From Chthoniobacteraceae bacterium (GTDB lineage Bacteria; Verrucomicrobiota; Verrucomicrobiia; Chthoniobacterales; Chthoniobacteraceae), in contig JANNWY010000254.1 of the NCBI GenBank assembly GCA_031409335.1, forward strand, positions 1 through 30,185: a stretch of DNA of 30,185 bases, in the 5' to 3' direction. This document shows positions 3,500 to 15,400 of the stretch, piece by piece (positions within the stretch are counted from its first letter, which is position 1; each line of letters opens with the position of its first letter). Under the pieces are notes generated by a model that was not told the DNA's origin, searched no databases, and worked only from the letters and a program-made list of their open reading frames with translations. Position numbers and translations under genes: made by a program.

Positions 3500-4744
3500 C
3501 TACCGGATCAGCATACTCGCAAGGCCGAGGAATGTCCCCATGCTTGCCACGTCCGTCGCGGTCGTGAGGAAGATGCTTGATGCCGTCGCCGGATCGGCGC
3601 CGAGGCGTTTCAGCGCGAGCGGCACGAGTGCGCCGGCGATGCCGCTGAGCAGGCAGCTCGCCGTCATCGCCAGCAGCACGCAAATCGCGAGCATCAGCGC
3701 GGACGGATTGTTCTGCATCGTGGCGTAAACGTACATCCCGATGCCCGCCGTGACGCCGACGAGCGCGCCGTTGCACACGCCGAGCAGTGCCTCTTTTGCG
3801 ACGAGCGTTTTTGCTTTTCCGGTTTTCAATTCCCCGAGCGTCAGCCCGCGCAGCGCGACCGCGAGCGCCTGGCAGCCAGTGTTTCCCGACTGCCCAGCGA
3901 GCACCGGCAGGAAAACGGCGAGCACCACGAGCCGGTCGATCGTATCCTGGAAAACGCCGACCACCGCCGCGGCGACGAATGCGGTGAGCAGATTGAGCTG
4001 CAACCACGGATGCCGAAATTTCAAACTGCGCGTCCACGGCGTGCTCAGGCGCTCTTCTTTTTCGACACCGACCATCGAGCCCGGCTGCGCGCTGAGTTCG
4101 ACGGCCTGGGCTTCAAAAAGCATCTGCCCACGCACCAGCCCGACCAGCCGCCCGCTCGCATCGCAGACCGGATACACAGGAAAATGCCGCACCACGGATT
4201 CCTTCATCGCGTCATTCAGCGACATCTCGGGCGTGAATGCGAACGGCTGGCGGATCATGATTTCGCCGAGCGTTTGCCCGGGATTTTCACTCAGCAGCAT
4301 TTCGCGCATCACGACGACGCCGACGAGCCGCTCGTCTTCATCGACCACGAATAGATACGTGATGAAGGCGCGTTTCGCCAACTGGCGCAGCTCCGCCGTC
4401 GCTTCGGTGATCGTCGTCTCCGGTCGATAAACCGCGAGCGGTGGCTCCATCATGTGGCCGATCGTATCCGGCGCGTGCGCTTCGTTGCGCATCCACTGGC
4501 GACGCGTTTCCACCGACGCCGCGGCCATGATTTTCTGGCGGCGCGCGCCGGGAAAACGCTCGACCACATCCTGCGCCGCTGCCGGGTTGAGCAGTTCCAG
4601 CATTTGCACCACAAACTCGTCGGGATACGGATCGAGCATTTTCACCGCCTCGGTCGGCGCGGTTTCCACGAGGGTCTGGATGAGCGTTTTGACTCCTGTT
4701 GCGTCGTCTTCGGCCGGGGATGTTGGGGAATTTGTCGGGTTCAT
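3500..4744 (-). CDS. mgtE: MgtE-family magnesium transporter (N-domain, CBS pair, TM domain)
   Basis: CBS-type segment (YLFVVDEDERLVGVV), PWLQLNL, GQSGNTGCQ and DPATASSIFLTTATD. Start placed at ATG 4744. Confidence 0.9.
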   Translation of the reverse strand: MNPTNSPTSPAEDDATGVKTLIQTLVETAPTEAVKMLDPYPDEFVVQMLELLNPAAAQDVVERFPGARRQKIMAAASVETRRQWMRNEAHAPDTIGHMMEPPLAVYRPETTITEATAELRQLAKRAFITYLFVVDEDERLVGVVVMREMLLSENPGQTLGEIMIRQPFAFTPEMSLNDAMKESVVRHFPVYPVCDASGRLVGLVRGQMLFEAQAVELSAQPGSMVGVEKEERLSTPWTRSLKFRHPWLQLNLLTAFVAAAVVGVFQDTIDRLVVLAVFLPVLAGQSGNTGCQALAVALRGLTLGELKTGKAKTLVAKEALLGVCNGALVGVTAGIGMYVYATMQNNPSALMLAICVLLAMTASCLLSGIAGALVPLALKRLGADPATASSIFLTTATDVASMGTFLGLASMLIR

Positions 4745-4902
4745 TGATTCGAGAAAGTGTCGCGCGAGCGCGCGGTGAATTCGCGCGAAACGGAAAGAAT
4801 GCACGCGAAAAAGCGCGGTTCGCACACCGCGGATTGCGCATCCGCAAATCGCAGGGTTGAATTTCCTGCCAGAACGGTGGCACGGTCACGTCCCGCATTT
4901 TC

Positions 4903-5994
4903 ATGGCCGAAAGAACAAACGTATTCATCGCCTACTGCTTCCCCGAGAAGAGATGGCTCGATCGCGTCCAGGCGGCGCTGGAACCCTTTGCCGGGGCCGA
5001 CCGCTGCGTCGTCTGGGACGAAAGAAAAGTGCGCACCAGTGGCACATGGAAAGCGGAACTGCCCGAGGTGCTCGCCACGACAAAGGTTGCGATGATGATC
5101 GTGAGCGATCTTTTCCTCGAGTCGGATTTCATCACGCGCGCGAAACTTCCCGCGATGCTCGAGCGCGAACGCGAAGATGGCCTCGAAATCTGCTGGGTGC
5201 TCGCGGGCCAGTGCCTGTTCGAGATGGCGGGCTTGAAGGAAGCCGATCTCGGAAACCGCGCGGGCTTGGCATTCGACGGGCTCGGGCTCGCCCAACGCGA
5301 CACGGAGGTCGCGGCTATCGCGCGAAAAGTGGCGGGGCTGCTCGGCGACGAATCACCCCGGCCCACCGACGCGCCGCCGCCGAAAAAGCCATTGCTTCCC
5401 TCGGCGATTCCGCTCGTCGTCGCGCCGAAACCGGTGCCAAAGAAGCGGCGGAATTTTGGCGTGAAAAAAGGCGAAGGCGAGCTGGTGCCACAGCCCAGCT
5501 TGTTGCCGACCGATCCGCCAGCCATTGCGCCTCGGCAGGAACTCGCGCCAGAGCTAGGAGCAAAAACCGCCGCCCCGTCAGCGTCCGCGGCGGCACCGCA
5601 CGAGGCAGCACGGCCAGCGGAGGCTGTGCCGGTGGAAATCACGCCGCCTGCGTCCGCGCGCGAACTTTCACTCACGACCATGATCGAGGCACGGCAGACC
5701 ACCGTGCTGAAACTCAGCCGCCTCGGGCGGAGGATGCTTTTCTTTTCCTACGCGATCGCACTCGCGGCGGTCGGCGTCCTCTTCACGTTCAGCATCGAGC
5801 ACTTCATTTTCGTCGCCGGATTTGCCCTGCTCGTCGCGAGCCTCGCGATGTGGCTGAACGCGCGTTCGCGTTCTCTCGGCCAGGGACTCGTGGCCATGCG
5901 CTACACCAGCAGCGGGCTCGCGGATGAAGCGCTGCCGACCCGCCAGCGGGACGCCCTCGTGCGCAAGGCCGACGACTACCTCGCGCAAAACTAA
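4903..5994 (+). CDS. TIR-domain protein with a Pro/Ala-rich linker and two C-terminal TM helices; catalytic Glu appears to be Lys
   Basis: N-terminal VFIAY...VWDER...W..EL.EVL..TKVAMMIVSDLFLESDFITRAKLP.ML fits the bacterial TIR_2 pattern; two hydrophobic segments near the C-terminus. Confidence 0.8.
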   Translation: MAERTNVFIAYCFPEKRWLDRVQAALEPFAGADRCVVWDERKVRTSGTWKAELPEVLATTKVAMMIVSDLFLESDFITRAKLPAMLEREREDGLEICWVLAGQCLFEMAGLKEADLGNRAGLAFDGLGLAQRDTEVAAIARKVAGLLGDESPRPTDAPPPKKPLLPSAIPLVVAPKPVPKKRRNFGVKKGEGELVPQPSLLPTDPPAIAPRQELAPELGAKTAAPSASAAAPHEAARPAEAVPVEITPPASARELSLTTMIEARQTTVLKLSRLGRRMLFFSYAIALAAVGVLFTFSIEHFIFVAGFALLVASLAMWLNARSRSLGQGLVAMRYTSSGLADEALPTRQRDALVRKADDYLAQN

Positions 5995-6003
5995 CCACCA
6001 ATC

Positions 6004-6855
6004 ATGGCCGTACCAAACACACCCAACGCCGATCTCGAACAGGCGCTCTTCAAGGCGAATCTGAAGGAAAAAAAACTCCGCCGCCGCGCCACGTTCGCCG
6101 CGCTCCTGCCGCTCATCGCCGGCCTCGCGTGGCTTGGCTACTCGTTCATCGAACTCACCACCTGGCAATCGCGCGCCGATGAAATCGCCGCGCAGGAAAC
6201 CGAAACGCAGCACCGCGAAAAGGCCGCCCAGGAGCGCGTCTCCGCCGCCGAAGCGAAGCTCGCCACCACGGAGGCGAGCGTGCAGACCTTCCAGCAGCAG
6301 GAAAAAGCGGCATCGGAACGCGCGACCGATATTCGCCAGCGGCTGGTGAAAGTGCGCGAGGAAATCGGCGGGCTCGGCACGCTGCTCACCGACCTGAATT
6401 CGGCGAAAGCCAAGGCCTCGAAACTCATGGCCAGCGAAGCCGTGGAATCGCAGATCACCGAAATCCGCACCGCGCTCAGCCGCAGCCTCGCGCGCGCCGA
6501 GCAGGAGATCGATCAGGCGCTTCCCGCCGAGGAGCAAAAGGCGCGGATTTACATTTTTGTCCCGGACGATGCGCAGGCCGCGGCGGCGAAGGAACTCGTG
6601 CCAGTTTTGGAAAGCGCCGGCTTTGACGTCGCGGGCATTTCAAAAAACTCCACGCGCAAAATCGACGAATCCGAAGTCCGCTATTTCCGCGATCCGCAGG
6701 ACAAGGCGGACGCGACGCGCATTCAGGATTTGTTTGTGAAACAGACTGGCCAGAGCGACTGCAAAATCATCCGCACCAGCGACCCGGAAAACGCGGCGGG
6801 CAGTCGGAAATTCCAGGTCTGGTTCGCGAAACCCGCGCCCGTGGGAGAACGCTGA
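6004..6855 (+). CDS. Single-TM coiled-coil protein with a C-terminal LytR_C-like alpha/beta domain
   Basis: TM ATFAALLPLIAGLAWLGYSFI; long E/Q/A/K-rich helical stretch; C-terminal RIYIFV...LESAGFDVAGI...SEVRYF..D...A..I...FQVWF. Confidence 0.65.
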   Translation: MAVPNTPNADLEQALFKANLKEKKLRRRATFAALLPLIAGLAWLGYSFIELTTWQSRADEIAAQETETQHREKAAQERVSAAEAKLATTEASVQTFQQQEKAASERATDIRQRLVKVREEIGGLGTLLTDLNSAKAKASKLMASEAVESQITEIRTALSRSLARAEQEIDQALPAEEQKARIYIFVPDDAQAAAAKELVPVLESAGFDVAGISKNSTRKIDESEVRYFRDPQDKADATRIQDLFVKQTGQSDCKIIRTSDPENAAGSRKFQVWFAKPAPVGER

Positions 6856-6863
6856 ATTTCGCG

Positions 6864-7217
6864 ATGACCGTCCGCGCGCTCGAAAGCCAAACGCCTTTCA
6901 CCACCAAGGACGGCTCGACCATCCGCAGCATCCTCGACCGGACCAATGCGCCGGTGCAAAACCAAAGCCTCGCCGAAGCGCGCGTCGCCGCCGGCGGTGC
7001 GACGCAGCGGCATTACCACCGGATCGCGGAGGAGTTTTATTTCATCCTCGAAGGCCGCGGCACGATCGAGATCGACGGTGAAACGCGCGCGGTCAGTCCG
7101 GGCGATGCGATCCTTATTCCGCCCGGTGCGTGGCACACGATCGGGGCGGAGGAAGCACTGCGTTTTCTCTGCTGCTGCGCGCCGCCCTACTCGCACGACG
7201 ACACGTATTTCGAGTAG
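6864..7217 (+). CDS. Cupin domain protein
   Basis: HYH...EEFYFILEGRG and GDAILIPPGAWH cupin motifs. Confidence 0.9.
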   Translation: MTVRALESQTPFTTKDGSTIRSILDRTNAPVQNQSLAEARVAAGGATQRHYHRIAEEFYFILEGRGTIEIDGETRAVSPGDAILIPPGAWHTIGAEEALRFLCCCAPPYSHDDTYFE

Positions 7218-7232
7218 GGCTGGAGGAGCTTA

Positions 7233-7307
7233 AACACAAAGACACGGAGGACACAGAGATTCACAGAGGCGGAAAGACCGGCTTCTTCTCTGTGTCACTC
7301 TGTGTCT
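7233..7307. repeat. Palindromic element of 9-bp-period ACACAGAG(G)-type units
   Basis: acacaaag acacggagg acacagaga ttcacagag ... ctctgtgtcactctgtgtct; the right arm is shorter. Confidence 0.7.
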
Positions 7308-7374
7308 AAGAAATGGCAGCGCATTATCGAGTTGCCAATGCGGGATGCATCGCGAGTCTCTTCCGCTCTTTCCC

Positions 7375-8247
7375 ATGGCCTCGGATACTTCCACCCTCGG
7401 CGTCAGCATCCTCATTCCCGCTTTTAACGAAGAGGGCGCGATCGAGGAGACGGTGAAAAAAATTGCGGAGCAGCGCCGTTTTTTCCGCGAGCTGGAAATC
7501 GTCGTCATCAACGATGGCTCGGAAGATCGCACTGGTGAAATCGCGCGCGGACTTCCCGTGACGCTGCTCGAGCACGAATCGAATCGCGGCTACGGCGCGG
7601 CGTTGAAAACCGGGCTGCAAAAGGCCAAGCACGAGATCGTGATGATCGCCGACGCGGACGGGACTTATCCGCTGGAAGATATCCCGAAGCTCGCAGCGGA
7701 CATCGGCGAATTCGACATGGTCGTGGGCGCGCGCACCGGCGCGGTCGTGCAGGTGCCGTGGATGCGGCGTCCGGGAAAATGGATCATCACGCGCCTCGCC
7801 GTGTATCTCAGCGGCCAGCAAATTCCCGACCTGAATTCCGGCCTGCGCATCTTCCGCCGCGATGTCGCGCTGCGTTTTCTCACGCTTTACCCGGACGGCT
7901 TCTCATTCACCACCACGATCACACTCGCGATGCTCACGAATCACTACCGCGTGAAATTCGTGCCGATCAACTACATGCGCCGCATCGGCAAATCGTCGAT
8001 CAAACCGATCCGCGATTTTACCAACTTCACGATCCTGATCATCCGCATCTGCGCTTATTTCAAACCGCTGAACGTCTTCGTCCCGCCCGCGCTCGTCCTC
8101 ATCATTGCCGGCCTCGTGAAAGGCACGATCGACTACCGCGGCGACGGCCACCTCGGCCTGCTCGCCATCGCCCTCGCGCTGACGGGAATCCAAATGCTGT
8201 TCATCGGCTTGCTCGCGGATTTGATCGATCAGCGGATGAAGCTCTAG
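7375..8247 (+). CDS. Glycosyltransferase family 2, polyprenol-phosphate sugar synthase (DPM1/GtrB-like)
   Basis: SILIPAFNEE, VVINDGSED, NRGYGAA, DADGTY and DLNSGLR motifs; two C-terminal TM helices. Confidence 0.9.
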   Translation: MASDTSTLGVSILIPAFNEEGAIEETVKKIAEQRRFFRELEIVVINDGSEDRTGEIARGLPVTLLEHESNRGYGAALKTGLQKAKHEIVMIADADGTYPLEDIPKLAADIGEFDMVVGARTGAVVQVPWMRRPGKWIITRLAVYLSGQQIPDLNSGLRIFRRDVALRFLTLYPDGFSFTTTITLAMLTNHYRVKFVPINYMRRIGKSSIKPIRDFTNFTILIIRICAYFKPLNVFVPPALVLIIAGLVKGTIDYRGDGHLGLLAIALALTGIQMLFIGLLADLIDQRMKL

Positions 8248-11252: not shown

Positions 11253-11422
11253 GATGGCAACTCGCGTTCGATCTCCTCGATCGAAATTCGCTCGCCGCCT
11301 TCTATCTCCGCAAGCCCCTGCCTGACTGCGGCGACGAATTCGATCTCCTGAGCGACCTGATGCAACGTCACGTTTTCGGGCAGCTTGTGAAGGAGGTCTT
11401 CAACGATTTGCTTGGTGCTCAT
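11237..11422 (-). CDS. Putative antitoxin of the RelE/ParE pair
   Basis: 61-aa acidic protein (LPENVT...VRQGLAEIEGGERISIEEI) upstream of and overlapping the toxin. Confidence 0.85.
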   Translation of the reverse strand: MSTKQIVEDLLHKLPENVTLHQVAQEIEFVAAVRQGLAEIEGGERISIEEIERELPSWVIK

Positions 11423-12927
11423 ATGTCCAGCTTGCGCGCGGAATTCGGATATTCAAGGACCGGCTTTGACGCGCCGCCTACGCCCAGCACCCCGGGAATC
11501 ACTTCCGCCCCGCCCGCGATTCCCGTGAGCCGTTCGGGGCGTCCGCTGTGTTCGTATTTTAGGTCGTCGTGGTTCAGGCCGAGGGCGGTAAGGATCGTGG
11601 CGTGGAGGTCTTTGAAGTCGTGCGGCTGCTCGGTGGCCATGAGGCCGATTTCGTCGGTCGCGCCGATCCGCGTGCCGGGTTTCACGCCGCCTCCAGCCAT
11701 CCAGATGGTGAATCCGGCGGCGTTGTGCTGGCGGCCGTTTTCGCCCTGCATCATCGGGGTGCGGCCAAATTCGCTGGCGCAGATGACGAGCGTTTCATCG
11801 AGCAGACCGCGCTGTTTCAAATCGTCGATGAGCGCGGCGATGGGCTGGTCGGTTTGGAGCGCGAGCGGCGGGTGGTTTTTGGTGATGTGCGAATGCGCGT
11901 CCCAGCCGTCTTTGTCGAACATGTTGTAAATCTGCACGAAGCGGACGCCGCGCTCGACGAGCCGACGCGAGAGCAGACATTTGCGGCCAAATTTCGCGAG
12001 CTGTTTGTCGCCGTGATCGAGCCCGTAGCTTGCGCGGAGGCTGGCGCTTTCCTTTTCCAAATCGCCGACATCGAGCGCGGCGGATTGCATCCGGTAGGCG
12101 AGTTCGTAGCTGGCGATGCGGGCGTCGAGTTCGGGGGCGTTTGGGCGCGTGGCGCGGTGCTTCAGATTGAGTTCGCGGATGAGATCGAGCGTCGCGCGCT
12201 GGCCTTCGGCGAAGGCGGCGGGTGGCAGGAGATCGAGCACCGGCGTGCCTTCGTCGCGCAGGCGGGTGCCTTGGAATGCGGCGGGCAGATAGCCGTTGGC
12301 GTAGTTTCCCGCGCCACCGAGCGGGCCGGCCTCGAAGAGCAGGACGTAGCCGGGCAGATTCTGATTTTCGGTGCCGAGTCCGTAGGTGATCCATGAGCCG
12401 AGGCTGGCTTTGCCGGCGAGCGATTCGCCGGTGTGAAGCTGAAAACTGGCGGGCGCGTGATTGTTGCTCTCGGCCTGCATGGAGTGGATGAAGCAGAGGT
12501 CGTCCACGCGTTTCGCCAGATGCGGATACAACTCGGAAACCCACATGCCGCTCCGGCCATGCTGAGCAAAAGTGAACGGGCTCGCCAACAGCTCGTCCTT
12601 GCAACCCTCGAAGACATTCGCGTGCCGCGATTTTTTCAGCGCCTCGCGAATCGAGGCGGGCACGGGTTTGCCGCCCAGTTTTTGCAGCTCAGGTTTGTAG
12701 TCGAAAGTGTCGATGCTCGACGGGCCGCCGACCATGAAAAGGAAGATGGCGCTTTTCGCCTTCGGCGCGAAATGCGGCGGGCGCGGGAGAAAAGGATTGA
12801 TCGGATCGATCCGCACATCCGCGCGCGATGGCGTGCGCAGCAATGCGCCAAGTGCGAGCGCGCCGAATCCGCCGGTGGTGCGCGTCAGGAATTCGCGCCG
12901 GGAGCAGCCTGTGCAGTGGAGATACAT
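11419..12927 (-). CDS. DUF1501 domain protein with Tat-like signal
   Basis: SRREFL; AKSAIFLFMVGGPS.IDTFDYKP; RRLVERGVRFVQ; WDAH; SEFGRTP; DLHATIL. Start placed at ATG 12927. Confidence 0.92.
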   Translation of the reverse strand: MYLHCTGCSRREFLTRTTGGFGALALGALLRTPSRADVRIDPINPFLPRPPHFAPKAKSAIFLFMVGGPSSIDTFDYKPELQKLGGKPVPASIREALKKSRHANVFEGCKDELLASPFTFAQHGRSGMWVSELYPHLAKRVDDLCFIHSMQAESNNHAPASFQLHTGESLAGKASLGSWITYGLGTENQNLPGYVLLFEAGPLGGAGNYANGYLPAAFQGTRLRDEGTPVLDLLPPAAFAEGQRATLDLIRELNLKHRATRPNAPELDARIASYELAYRMQSAALDVGDLEKESASLRASYGLDHGDKQLAKFGRKCLLSRRLVERGVRFVQIYNMFDKDGWDAHSHITKNHPPLALQTDQPIAALIDDLKQRGLLDETLVICASEFGRTPMMQGENGRQHNAAGFTIWMAGGGVKPGTRIGATDEIGLMATEQPHDFKDLHATILTALGLNHDDLKYEHSGRPERLTGIAGGAEVIPGVLGVGGASKPVLEYPNSARKLDI

Positions 12928-13012
12928 GGGAAGAATCGGGGACTTGGCGGCAAAAGTATTTCGGGCGAACGGATTTATCGAGTAATCCTCCGTCACAAAT
13001 TTTCTTCGGATC

Positions 13013-15400
13013 ATGCGTCGTTCCAATCCCGTCCTCGCTGCGTTTGCGTGTGTGTTTTCGACACACGCGGCGGAGCTGTTGGCGGATGAGAGGTTCCACG
13101 CGGAAGTGTGGCCGCTGCTGGAGCGGACTTGTCTGCGTTGCCACGGCCCGGAAAAGCAGAAGAGCGGGCTGCGGCTGGATTCGCGTGAGGCGGCGTTGAA
13201 AGGCGGTGAGGATGGCGCGGCGCTGGTGCCGGGGAAGCCGGAGGAAAGTTTGCTTTTGAAACTGGTGCGTCACACGGACGCGGATCGCGAGATGCCGCCG
13301 AAGGAAAAGCTGCAAGACGCCGAGATCGCGAGCCTGGAGCGCTGGATCGCGGATGGCGCTCCGTGGCCCGCGCCGCCTTCCGGCGAGGAGGCTGCGGTGG
13401 TGGAAAATCTTGGCAATGCGTGGAGCGATCCGCGGAATCCGATCACGAAAATTTTCTTCGGAAAGCGGCTCGATCTCTGGTCGCTGAAACCGATCGCGAA
13501 TCCGCTGCCGCCGAAAGCGGGAAACCCGATCGACGCTTTTGCGCGCGCGCCGCTGGCACCCGAGGCGGATGCGCGCACGCTTTGCCGGCGGCTGTATTTC
13601 GGGCTCACCGGGCTGCCGCCGACGCCGGAGGAGATGGCGGCATTTCTGGATGGGTCCCATGGGTCGAATGATTCCTACGAGACCCATATCGATCGCCTGC
13701 TCGCCGCGCCGCGCTACGGCGAGCACTGGGCGCGGATGTGGCTCGATGTGGTGCGCTACAGCGACAGCAATGGCTTTGACTGGGATGAGTTTCGCCCGCA
13801 GGCGTGGCGCTTCCGCGATTACGTGATCCGCTCGTTGAATGCGGACAAACCGTTCGACCGTTTCGTGCGCGAACAACTCGCCGGCGACGAACTTCTCTCC
13901 GGTCCACCGCGCGATGCCGCAGAGCAGGATTGCCTCATCGCCACCGGCTACCTGCGGCTTGGTCCGCACGACAACAGCGCGGCGCAATTCGGCGAAGGCC
14001 CGCGCGTCCGCGCCGCGCTGATGAACGATCTCGTCGAGACGACCGGCGCCGCGTTCCTCGGCCTCACGCTCTCGTGCAGCCGCTGCCACCATCACAAATT
14101 CGATCCGATTTCCCAGGCCGACTACTACCGGCTGCGCGCGTTTTTCGAGGGTGTGAAATTTGCCGACGATCTGCCGATCGACCTCGCTCCGAGGCAGGAC
14201 GAGGTGAATCGCGCGAACGAAGCGATCGAGGCGCGGATGAAGGAAGCGCGCAAAATTCGCGATGAGATCGCCGCGACTGCGAAGGAGCGAATCAAGTCGC
14301 CGAAAATAAAGGACAAGCCTTCCGACGAGGAAGTGCAGGCCGTTTTAAGCGAAGACGAAAAGCGCCGCCACGCCGAGGCGGATGCGGCGCTGAAGGAGTT
14401 GAAAAAGAAGATTCAGCCATTCACCACCGGCCTGCTCGCCGTCGATGAAAACGCGAAGCCGCCCGCGACGCGCGTGCTTTTCCAAGGCGATCTCACAAAG
14501 CCACGCGAACCGGTGCCGCCGGGATTTCTCTCCGCGCTCGATCCGAATCCCGCCACCGTGCCGAAGCCCGCGCGTGAGAATTCCTCCGGCCGCCGCAGCG
14601 CGTTCGCGGAGTGGATCGTGTCGGAGAAAAATCCGCTGACCGCGCGAGTCATCGTGAATCGGGTGTGGCAGGCGCACTTCGGCGAAGGACTCGTCGCGAC
14701 CGCGAACGATTTCGGTTTCGCGGGCGCGCGTCCGACGAATCCTGAACTGCTCGACTGGCTCGCGCGCGAATTCATGCGCGACGGCTGGTCTTTGAAAAAA
14801 CTGAACCGCCTCATCGTCACCAGCGCCACGTATCGCCAAAGCACGACGGTGCGGCGGCTGAGCGCGGAGGCGATGCGCGACACGATGCTCGCGGTCGCGG
14901 GAAAGCTGCTGCCGTTTGAAGGCGGCGCGCCGGTGTGGCCGGAACTGCCCGATGAAGTGCTGCGCGCAAACCCCGCCGTGCTCGATGACAACGCGGAGAA
15001 AACCAAAGGCTGGTATCCCACGCCGCGCGAAAAGGCCGGCGTCGCCAGCATCTTCCTCGTGCAAAAACGCGGGCTGCACGTGCCGATGATGGACACCTTC
15101 GATCTGCCCGACAACTCGCTCTCCTGCGCGCGCCGCGATGTCTCCACCGTCGCCCCGCAGGCGCTCACGCTGCTCAACAGCCCGTTCGCCACGGAGATGG
15201 CGGACGCCTTTTCCAAACGAGTCCAGCGCGAGGCCGGCGACGACCCCGCCGCGCAGATCGAGCGCGCCTTCGCCCTCGCCTTTCAGCGTCCGCCCGACGA
15301 CGCCGAGCGCGCATCCTGCGCGCAATTCCGCCAGCAGCGCACCCTCGCGGAACTCTGCCGCGCGCTGCTGAATGTGAACGAACTCGTGTACGTCGATTGA
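13013..15400 (+). CDS. Planctomycete cytochrome c (PSCyt1)/DUF1549/DUF1553 (PSD1) protein
   Basis: Signal peptide; CLRCH and CSRCH heme-binding motifs; YGEHWARMWLDVVRY, NPLTARVIVNRVWQAHFG, PELLDWLA and QALTLLN. Confidence 0.92.
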   Translation: MRRSNPVLAAFACVFSTHAAELLADERFHAEVWPLLERTCLRCHGPEKQKSGLRLDSREAALKGGEDGAALVPGKPEESLLLKLVRHTDADREMPPKEKLQDAEIASLERWIADGAPWPAPPSGEEAAVVENLGNAWSDPRNPITKIFFGKRLDLWSLKPIANPLPPKAGNPIDAFARAPLAPEADARTLCRRLYFGLTGLPPTPEEMAAFLDGSHGSNDSYETHIDRLLAAPRYGEHWARMWLDVVRYSDSNGFDWDEFRPQAWRFRDYVIRSLNADKPFDRFVREQLAGDELLSGPPRDAAEQDCLIATGYLRLGPHDNSAAQFGEGPRVRAALMNDLVETTGAAFLGLTLSCSRCHHHKFDPISQADYYRLRAFFEGVKFADDLPIDLAPRQDEVNRANEAIEARMKEARKIRDEIAATAKERIKSPKIKDKPSDEEVQAVLSEDEKRRHAEADAALKELKKKIQPFTTGLLAVDENAKPPATRVLFQGDLTKPREPVPPGFLSALDPNPATVPKPARENSSGRRSAFAEWIVSEKNPLTARVIVNRVWQAHFGEGLVATANDFGFAGARPTNPELLDWLAREFMRDGWSLKKLNRLIVTSATYRQSTTVRRLSAEAMRDTMLAVAGKLLPFEGGAPVWPELPDEVLRANPAVLDDNAEKTKGWYPTPREKAGVASIFLVQKRGLHVPMMDTFDLPDNSLSCARRDVSTVAPQALTLLNSPFATEMADAFSKRVQREAGDDPAAQIERAFALAFQRPPDDAERASCAQFRQQRTLAELCRALLNVNELVYVD

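Follow-up and report, generated by a model that had tools for sequence, protein, structure and literature searches.

Two adjacent genes and their products

The stretch of DNA analysed here, referred to as the window, comprises 30,185 nucleotides of a Chthoniobacteraceae bacterium (assembly GCA_031409335.1, contig JANNWY010000254.1, positions 1 to 30,185 of the forward strand). It encodes a protein in which a TIR domain is followed by a linker and a two-helix transmembrane (TM) hairpin, hereafter the TIR-linker-2TM protein, and directly downstream a second protein, hereafter the partner. The TIR domain carries Lys in the column of the Glu that is catalytic in TIR NADases, i.e. enzymes cleaving nicotinamide adenine dinucleotide (NAD+). 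The features considered are the following.

4903..5994, plus strand: TIR-linker-2TM gene, from the list of open reading frames (ORFs); 363 amino acids and a stop codon; single copy in its own genome
4903..5352, plus strand: TIR-fold domain, residues 1-150, from Pfam TIR_2, VIA and a modelled predicted local distance difference test (pLDDT) of ~81-94
4930..4950, plus strand: altered box 1 / AA loop, residues 10-16, AYCFPEK (SYSHKD in relatives), from column counts
5143..5145, plus strand: codon AAA for K81, within SDFITRAKLP, in the column of the catalytic Glu of TIR NADases
5353..5652, plus strand: predicted disordered linker rich in Pro, Ala and Lys, approximately residues 151-250, from pLDDT and alignment gaps
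5731..5862, plus strand: predicted two-helix membrane hairpin, residues 277-320, with a short SIEH turn, from Kyte-Doolittle hydropathy and model helices
5863..5991, plus strand: conserved, predicted cytosolic tail, residues 321-363, ARxR..GQGLV.MRYT.SGLADE.LP.RQR..L.RKA
6004..6855, plus strand: partner gene, 283 amino acids, starting 9 nt past the stop codon of the TIR gene; N-terminal peptide 1-28, TM helix 31-51, coiled coil to ~172 and a LytR_C-like alpha/beta domain 181-273

The frame at 4903..5994 opens with ATG and is uninterrupted, and the family ORF is free of internal stops in all genomes searched. An earlier note, made by reading this DNA, had claimed an intact ORF at this place, the codon AAA at 5143-5145 giving K81 in SDFITRAKLP, an altered box 1 reading VFIAYCF, and a Pro/Ala-rich linker with two TM helices after the TIR part; these descriptions were all borne out, the altered box by the relatives' consensus FISYSHkD and the linker and helices by the low-pLDDT stretch and the hydropathy of residues 277-320. 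The G+C fraction is 0.65 in 5001-6000, within a range of 0.56-0.67 across the window.

In addition to the protein itself, 47 homologues of the TIR-linker-2TM protein were collected. Residues 277-320 are hydrophobic on the Kyte-Doolittle scale and long enough for two membrane segments. As the hairpin is flanked by basic residues on both sides (KLSRLGRR before, NARSRS after), both its ends are predicted to be cytoplasmic. The tail that follows is almost invariant in the family alignment, and its G, D, P and RQR remain invariant across eight aligned rows, consisting of the window's protein and seven distant members (28-42% identity to the first row). The length of the linker varies among homologues, and alignment gaps indicate that it is wholly missing from 270-residue forms. 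In the AlphaFold2 model its pLDDT is below 50 at residues 156-166, 168-170, 184-223, 227-238 and 243-247. Within this disordered stretch (window 5353-5500, residues ~151-200) a short motif, KKPLLPSAIP..PKPVRKKKR, is common to the closer homologues.

A relationship of the 2TM module to the SLATT families (PF18181, PF18184 and others) was considered and found unsupported, with no significant similarity. SLATT_3 matched 3 of 48 members, none with an E value below 0.15, and SLATT_1 matched two of the 48 (E 2.8); hhalign, run with 59 C-terminal modules against five SLATT_3 sequences, a thin template from a single SLATT family, gave a probability of 0.4%. A search of the ESM Atlas with the C-terminal module reached a top score of 0.83 and gave no usable lead. 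In one genome (L031:6979-7817) a TIR part (ORF of 174 residues) and a 2TM-tail part (ORF of 105 residues) abut and are followed by the partner gene, an arrangement that represents a naturally split gene or else a frameshift.

The N-terminal domain has a TIR fold

The AlphaFold2 model, built with 48 family sequences, has a mean pLDDT of 76.6. It contains an alpha/beta domain over residues 1-150 (pLDDT ~81-94), three long helices (252-295, 298-340 and 346-362) and, between the two, residues 156-247, most of which fall below 50. The best VIA match is the RPS4 TIR domain 4c6t_B (Z 14.0, root-mean-square deviation (rmsd) 2.4 A over 135 residues). Rows 1-22 of the VIA list are all TIR chains (plant, SPARTA, IL-1RAcPb), flavodoxin-like proteins appear from Z 11.3 downwards, and the TIR domains of SARM1, MyD88 and AbTir are listed as well. 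The top Foldseek match of the model is the L6 TIR domain (E 7.3e-4). Residues 1-150 are a TIR fold, and the assignment made in the earlier note stands, with the 22 highest-ranking structural neighbours all of this fold.

At the level of sequence, Pfam TIR_2 (PF13676) matches residues 7-102 with 24.9 bits (E 3e-5), below the gathering cut-off of 28 bits. The same model matches 48 of 48 family members at E values up to 5 (best 1.8e-7), and a precomputed PF13676 label is attached to 19 of them. PADLOC returned a weak ThsB1 match for the TIR-linker-2TM protein (E 4.9e-4), and an NCBIfam scan of this protein gave nothing useful. A sequence search of the PDB with the full family profile had to be discarded, as its sole match was low-complexity (E 7.5); a profile of the domain only, including Glu-bearing relatives, was needed.

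Lys or Arg occupies the catalytic Glu column throughout the family

The domain-only profile, made from the window's domain and 23 short relatives, matches TIR domains of known structure, namely AtTIR (3jrn, E 1.7e-5), 7uxr, PdTIR (3h16) and AbTir (7uwg/8g83). In these profile alignments K81 shares its column with the Glu of CLDEL in AtTIR and of W-TNYEL in AbTir. K81 aligns with the catalytic-Glu position of TIR NADases, an equivalence that rests on the profile alignment together with 85-90% conservation of that Glu; the stretch from F76 to K81 differs by one residue in length from the WxxxE motif of AbTir. According to PMC10641520, this motif of AbTir is made by W204 and E208, which are turned inward to bind a substrate analogue, and the E208A variant is inactive, in line with the earlier note's statement that TIR activity needs the Glu.

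A scan of 1.84 billion representatives returned 7563 proteins at E values up to 0.001, of which 2455 reached E values up to 1e-10. Most matches cover residues 1-145 only and belong to many architectures. Column 81 was then counted in the aligned domain matches among 192 proteins. The 151 domain matches without a membrane module have Glu in 137 cases, Lys or Arg in seven, Asp in four, Gln in one and a gap in two, and the consensus of the 137 Glu-bearing domains reads FISYSHkD...vWdDtkI..G..W..EI...LLVS.nFLaSdFIa..ELPpLL. This agrees with the SDFIxxxELP that had been ascribed to related bacterial TIRs. Conversely, the proteins that combine a TIR match over column 81 with the C-terminal module have Lys (48) or Arg (10) in 58 of 58 cases and Glu in none, so that close orthologues, which might have kept the Glu, do not. 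The Glu codon GAA is one base away from AAA, yet no family member has Glu. The substitution is found both in the 48 close homologues (44-84% identity) and in distant members, which are ~28-42% identical to one another.

Six of the seven Lys/Arg cases without the module are fragments of 105-220 residues that otherwise resemble the family. The seventh is a single domain of a four-TIR protein (P0085, 637 residues), in which one of the tandem TIR_2 domains has Lys at the Glu position and no membrane module is found. Judged from these alignments, the loss of Glu is family-wide, fixed and specific to the architecture that joins a TIR domain to the 2TM module. The family lacks, in other words, the Glu at the alpha-C position that marks a catalytic TIR, and the reading of the earlier note that this is not a Glu-dependent NADase stands.

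The former pocket segments are altered and conserved

The exchange at position 81 is accompanied by others. In box 1 the Ser of the relatives at position 10 is Ala in 49 of the 58 family members, Ser12 is Cys (45/58), His13 is Phe (45/58), Lys14 is Pro (47/58) and Asp15 is Glu (48/58). Outside box 1, Thr41 of the relatives is Arg in the family (52/58), Ala89 is Glu (46/58), and position 79, occupied by various residues in the relatives, is Arg or Lys (52/58). Position 69, Pro or Ala in the relatives, is Asp or Glu in 57 of 58 members, the one distant exception keeping Pro. E73 is present in 43 of 58. W38, D39, W49, E52, S68, S74 and F76 are retained as in the Glu-bearing relatives.

The domain as a whole is constrained, with 24 invariant and many near-invariant columns over 48 sequences at 44-84% identity, and the constraint is strongest where the motifs lie: the mean entropy within the family is 0.73 bits at residues 10-16 and 0.80 bits at 66-86 (beta-C/alpha-C), as compared to 1.30 bits elsewhere in the domain. 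These two segments we take to line the NAD+ pocket in TIR enzymes such as SARM1 and AbTir, with Ser, His and Lys of box 1 presumably lining the NAD+ diphosphate site in SARM1-type TIRs. Since the motif segments are the most conserved part of the domain, the pattern argues for a remodelled, still functional surface at the former pocket rather than for decay.

The partner and its predicted complex with the TIR protein

The partner has ~100 homologues of nearly constant length, and the named ones are nearly all annotated as 'hypothetical protein', with no functional name. Its N-terminal peptide, PNTPNADLEQALFKANLKEKKLR, is near-invariant in the alignment. A KEKKLRRR run precedes the TM helix and acidic residues follow it, and the partner is on this basis predicted to have its N-terminus inside and the remainder in the periplasm. 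The model of the partner has a pLDDT of 85.4.

Library scans for general and defence domains matched the partner to coiled-coil models and LytR_C only. Pfam LytR_C (PF13399) scores 16 bits on the window's partner (E 0.024), the cut-off being 22.2 bits, and matches 29 of 34 partner members, likewise below the cut-off (best E 1.1e-4). In Foldseek, the top match of the C-terminal domain is 2m5y, the C-terminal domain of Rv0431 (E 3.6e-3, probability 1.00, rmsd 3.8 A over 99 columns), and 6q10, from an orthologue of Rv2700, stands at rank 32. VIA places 2m5y at rank 47 (Z 7.8, rmsd 3.4 A, 87 residues). From this combination of scores and modelled fold the domain may be called LytR_C-like, rather than a proven LytR_C member. 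A wide VIA search with the whole partner model was set aside, as helical bundles at Z 8-9 fill the list and were taken to reflect a common arrangement. The ESM Atlas search with the C-terminal domain scored 0.92 and led to unnamed clusters only.

The full TIR protein was modelled together with partner residues 1-75, using alignments for both chains. The interaction prediction score from aligned errors (ipSAE) was 0.63 (0.66, 0.63 and 0.57 in the individual runs), as compared to 0.00 for the best control; among solved complexes 116 of 157 reach the mark set for this score, among mismatched pairs 2 of 215. The runs share at least 85% of their contacts, with a pLDDT of at least 78 in the partner. 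In the predicted interface, TM2 and the tail of the TIR protein (residues 299-355) meet the N-terminal peptide and TM helix of the partner (residues 8-50), with additional contacts at residues 102-103 and 123-128 of the TIR protein. Such an arrangement fits the predicted topologies and involves the most strongly conserved parts of both proteins. The prediction supports binding between the two proteins, and we know of no solved complex that resembles it.

A two-gene cassette found in one family

In other genomes of the same bacterial family, the partner gene lies directly after the TIR gene in 12 of 13 loci, the exception being a weak TIR-only match, and the distance between the two genes ranges from -4 nt (an overlap) to +42 nt. 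The 13 loci have no other neighbour and no third gene in common. The TIR profile matches 17 of 101 genomes of the family (8 of 29 genera) and the partner profile 16 of 101 (7 of 29 genera); the genomes with the partner are those with the TIR gene minus the weak TIR-only match. A profile search of 300 other genomes of the phylum did not find the partner, and when 400 genomes of the phylum were searched, matches outside the family were to the TIR part only. Scanning one genome per species gave 16 loci, all from metagenome-assembled genomes labelled Chthoniobacter, Chthoniobacteraceae, Chthoniobacterales or Verrucomicrobiota. Two metagenome scans for the distant members that combine Lys or Arg with the 2TM module (P0062, P0066, P0072, P0133, P0155) found nothing. 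The two genes are a lineage-specific cassette, in which the partner is obligate.

The genome containing the window has six further TIR_2 matches elsewhere. Two strong ones (82.7 and 80.2 bits) are ~700 bp apart on another contig (C176:27776-29030), the first of them having an in-frame TGA, and the other four are on contigs C117, C302 and C182.

Origin of the family and likeness to known systems

The Glu-bearing TIR_2 relatives are 28-38% identical to the domain over 145 residues, with E values down to ~1e-30. A domain scan of 59 multidomain relatives, nearly all of them Glu-bearing (three hold a domain with Lys, Gln or Asp at column 81), identified WD40, NACHT and other STAND NTPases, AAA_35, TPR, HEAT, CHAT, FGE-sulfatase and LRR as co-domains, and further EAD8, the CAP12-PCTIR TIR, DUF4062, SEFIR, NUDIX and kinase. 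Such architectures are typical of conflict systems, for which reason the 2TM family is, as far as its relatives indicate, an offshoot of effector-type TIRs. Compared to AbTir, PdTIR and the TIR-STAND, TIR-WD40 and TIR-CHAT proteins it has the same fold and belongs to the same sequence subfamily. It shares W38-D39, W49, E52, VS68, FL, S74-DF and LP83 with the bacterial TIR_2 NADases, from which it differs in having Lys or Arg at 81, AYCFPE for SYSHKD in box 1, Arg for Thr at 41 and Asp or Glu for Pro at 69. Moreover, a 2TM hairpin and tail follow its TIR domain, in place of the STAND, repeat or protease modules to which those of the TIR_2 NADases are fused.

A second likeness is to the animal Toll-like receptors (TLRs) and to the adaptors of these. 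The modelled fold resembles IL-1RAcPb (Z 11.6), MyD88 (Z 10.7-10.9) and the MAL filament (Z 10.7) in VIA; as in MyD88, MAL and TLR1/2/6/10, the Glu would not be used catalytically, and as in TLRs a cytoplasmic TIR domain would be held at the membrane with an outward-facing domain opposite, if the predicted topology is correct. Unlike in TLRs, the outward part with its coiled coil and LytR_C-like domain belongs to a polypeptide of its own, anchoring is by a hairpin rather than a single pass, and the family descends, by sequence, from bacterial TIR_2 enzymes.

The partner is like M. tuberculosis VirR/Rv0431 and Cei/Rv2700 in being a membrane-anchored protein with a solo LytR_C-like domain. It is unlike them in coming from a diderm verrucomicrobium, in having a 120-residue coiled coil, in being paired with a TIR protein and in scoring below the Pfam cut-off. 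Solo LytR_C proteins such as VirR act in cell-wall remodelling, interacting through the LytR_C domain (PMC11832169).

Among bacterial systems with a comparable layout, combinations of TIR and TM proteins defend E. coli (PMC11350192), and operons of TIR and SLATT genes constitute Thoeris type VII (bioRxiv 10.64898/2025.12.03.692087). They have in common with the present cassette a two-gene operon, one TIR protein and membrane-spanning helices. The TIRs of these systems are enzymes whose product is a signal to a separate effector, whereas the TIR domain here has no Glu and is itself fused to the hairpin; in further contrast, the second gene has no known signal-binding domain, no SLATT similarity was found and the loci are not defence islands. 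Thoeris-like systems are characterised by a TIR gene within a defence island and beside an effector whose signal-binding or killing domain is known, and the cassette is not arranged in this way.

Interpretation

Our preferred reading, held tentatively and at a little short of an even chance, is that the membrane-anchored, Glu-less TIR protein and the product of the next gene form an inner-membrane complex, in which the TIR domain is likely a non-enzymatic module for binding or assembly, and not a NADase. Both ends of the hairpin would point towards the cytoplasm. The N-terminus of the partner is predicted to be cytoplasmic and its coiled coil and LytR_C-like domain periplasmic, with the N-terminal peptide and TM helix of the partner packed on TM2 and the tail of the TIR protein. 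The periplasmic domain may read or bind something in the cell envelope, and the complex could relay this input to the tethered TIR domain, which would respond through ligand or protein binding or through self-association instead of NAD+ cleavage.

The earlier note had correctly assigned the TIR fold, placed K81 on the catalytic Glu and regarded the loss as genuine, which is now seen to be fixed. It had missed the conserved two-gene cassette and the absence of a consistent defence-island setting. Of the candidate roles it proposed, i.e. a scaffold, a signal receptor gating a 2TM effector or a decoy, the last is unlikely because of the strict conservation and the obligate partner.

Several observations weigh against the preferred reading. 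The two genes have a patchy distribution, occurring in 8 of the 29 genera of one family, a pattern commoner for accessory or defence genes than for core envelope functions, and the conflict-type architectures of the Glu-bearing relatives (STAND, WD40, CHAT, EAD8, CAP12-PCTIR) give the family an ancestry that points to immunity. D/E69 (57/58) and E73 (43/58) are candidate substitute carboxylates at the active site. Furthermore, the complex is a model and not a measurement, the periplasmic placement of the C-terminal part of the partner is a prediction from charge distribution only, and the LytR_C assignment combines sub-threshold sequence scores with a middling fold match.

The strongest competitor, rather unlikely in our estimate, is that the pair is an unrecognised anti-phage or abortive-infection cassette, in which a nucleotide signal or phage cue would be received by the Glu-less TIR domain, whose assembly would make the 2TM hairpins breach the membrane, with the partner restraining the system or sensing injection at the envelope. 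The effector TIRs of conflict-type multidomain proteins are indeed the nearest Glu-bearing relatives, the distribution is patchy with varying chromosomal positions, the weak ThsB1 match fits, the six other TIR_2 matches in the genome could supply a signal, and there is the precedent of the TIR and TM systems of E. coli and of Thoeris type VII. Still, of the 12 other cassette loci scanned with PADLOC just 3 have defence-type genes, these being PDC-S03, with MazEF close by, a type I restriction enzyme and an SNF2/DpdE-like helicase, and in the window the scan found none. No conserved third gene is present to make a signal, the 2TM module has no significant SLATT similarity by either measure given above, the cassette was found in one bacterial family only, and known TIR defence systems need the TIR active site that is missing here.

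A further reading, which we consider improbable, is that the domain is still an enzyme with altered chemistry, acting on NAD+ or another nucleotide or substrate by means of a relocated carboxylate (D/E69 or E73) or of the Lys itself. The acidic residue at 69 did appear in step with the exchange of E81 for Lys or Arg, the former active-site segments stay the most conserved, and the residues from W38 to F76 listed above are kept as in the Glu-bearing relatives; however, the box-1 residues Ser, His and Lys are replaced by Cys, Phe and Pro, and one distant member has Pro at 69. We are aware of no TIR enzyme that is active when the alpha-C Glu is absent. One might also regard the TIR domain as a remnant in decay or as a decoy, with no function of its own and with the membrane part as all that matters; this view could appeal to the lost catalytic residue, the Pfam score below cut-off and the variable, dispensable linker. 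It is very hard to reconcile with the 24 invariant TIR columns over such divergent sequences, with Lys or Arg fixed in every member counted, with an ORF intact in all genomes, and with motif segments more conserved than the remainder of the domain, and we give it hardly any weight.

A more specific version of the preferred reading is unlikely as it stands: the cassette could be a two-chain bacterial counterpart of a TLR, in which a periplasmic sensor (coiled coil and LytR_C-like domain) would act via the membrane complex on a non-catalytic cytoplasmic TIR domain that signals by binding or assembly, K/R81 and Asp69 forming a new site for a ligand or partner in the old NAD+ pocket. If true, this would make it the first TIR pseudoenzyme of bacteria to have a role in transmembrane sensing.

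To our knowledge, all bacterial TIR domains characterised so far are NAD+-consuming enzymes, and signalling by TIR domains as scaffolds is considered peculiar to animals. In the present case, a family descending from enzyme-type TIRs has fixed Lys or Arg at the catalytic position, kept the pocket segments under constraint and become coupled, in the predicted complex, to an envelope-facing partner. If the TIR domain is non-enzymatic, the switch from enzyme to adaptor occurred in bacteria as well, and the cassette provides a simple two-gene system for asking what a Glu-less TIR pocket binds. If the pair is instead a defence system, it is of a type absent from PADLOC-DB 2.0.0 (2023). Either way, it is a clean target for expression, pull-down and structural work. 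Literature searches found no paper joining 'TIR domain' with 'Chthoniobacter' or with 'LytR_C', and broader searches, at the level of listings and abstracts, showed no bacterial Glu-less membrane TIR among the papers listed, although the supplements of a TIR survey (10.64898/2025.12.03.692087) might list the cluster.

Genomic surroundings

In the window the cassette is surrounded by chromosomal genes of an ordinary kind, which encode an NAD-dependent epimerase, MgtE (from the opposite strand), a cupin, a GT2 glycosyltransferase, a DUF1501/PSCyt pair and PntB. None of the genes for the epimerase, MgtE, the cupin and GT2 is a conserved neighbour at the other loci, where the surrounding genes are mostly of housekeeping or envelope type (GT9, GT4, ribosomal protein L21, release factor, PurK, squalene-hopene cyclase, IlvD). 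In three genomes from two genera (L029, L030 and L031; g20 and g13) the cassette is located between GT9 heptosyltransferase/GT4 genes and the gene for ribosomal protein L21. A loose association with envelope sugar genes is thereby apparent, and the window also has the epimerase and GT2 genes nearby.

A promoter scan of 4600-7400 returned 0 sigma-70-like sites, a sigma-70 scan being uninformative for this phylum. The cupin gene (6864-7217) begins 8 nt past the partner stop codon and may be co-transcribed with the cassette in the window; it is next to the cassette at none of the 13 other loci. Further downstream, 11419-15400 holds divergent genes for a DUF1501 protein (minus strand) and a PSCyt1/PSCyt2/PSD1 protein (plus strand), a pairing typical of Planctomycetes and Verrucomicrobia.

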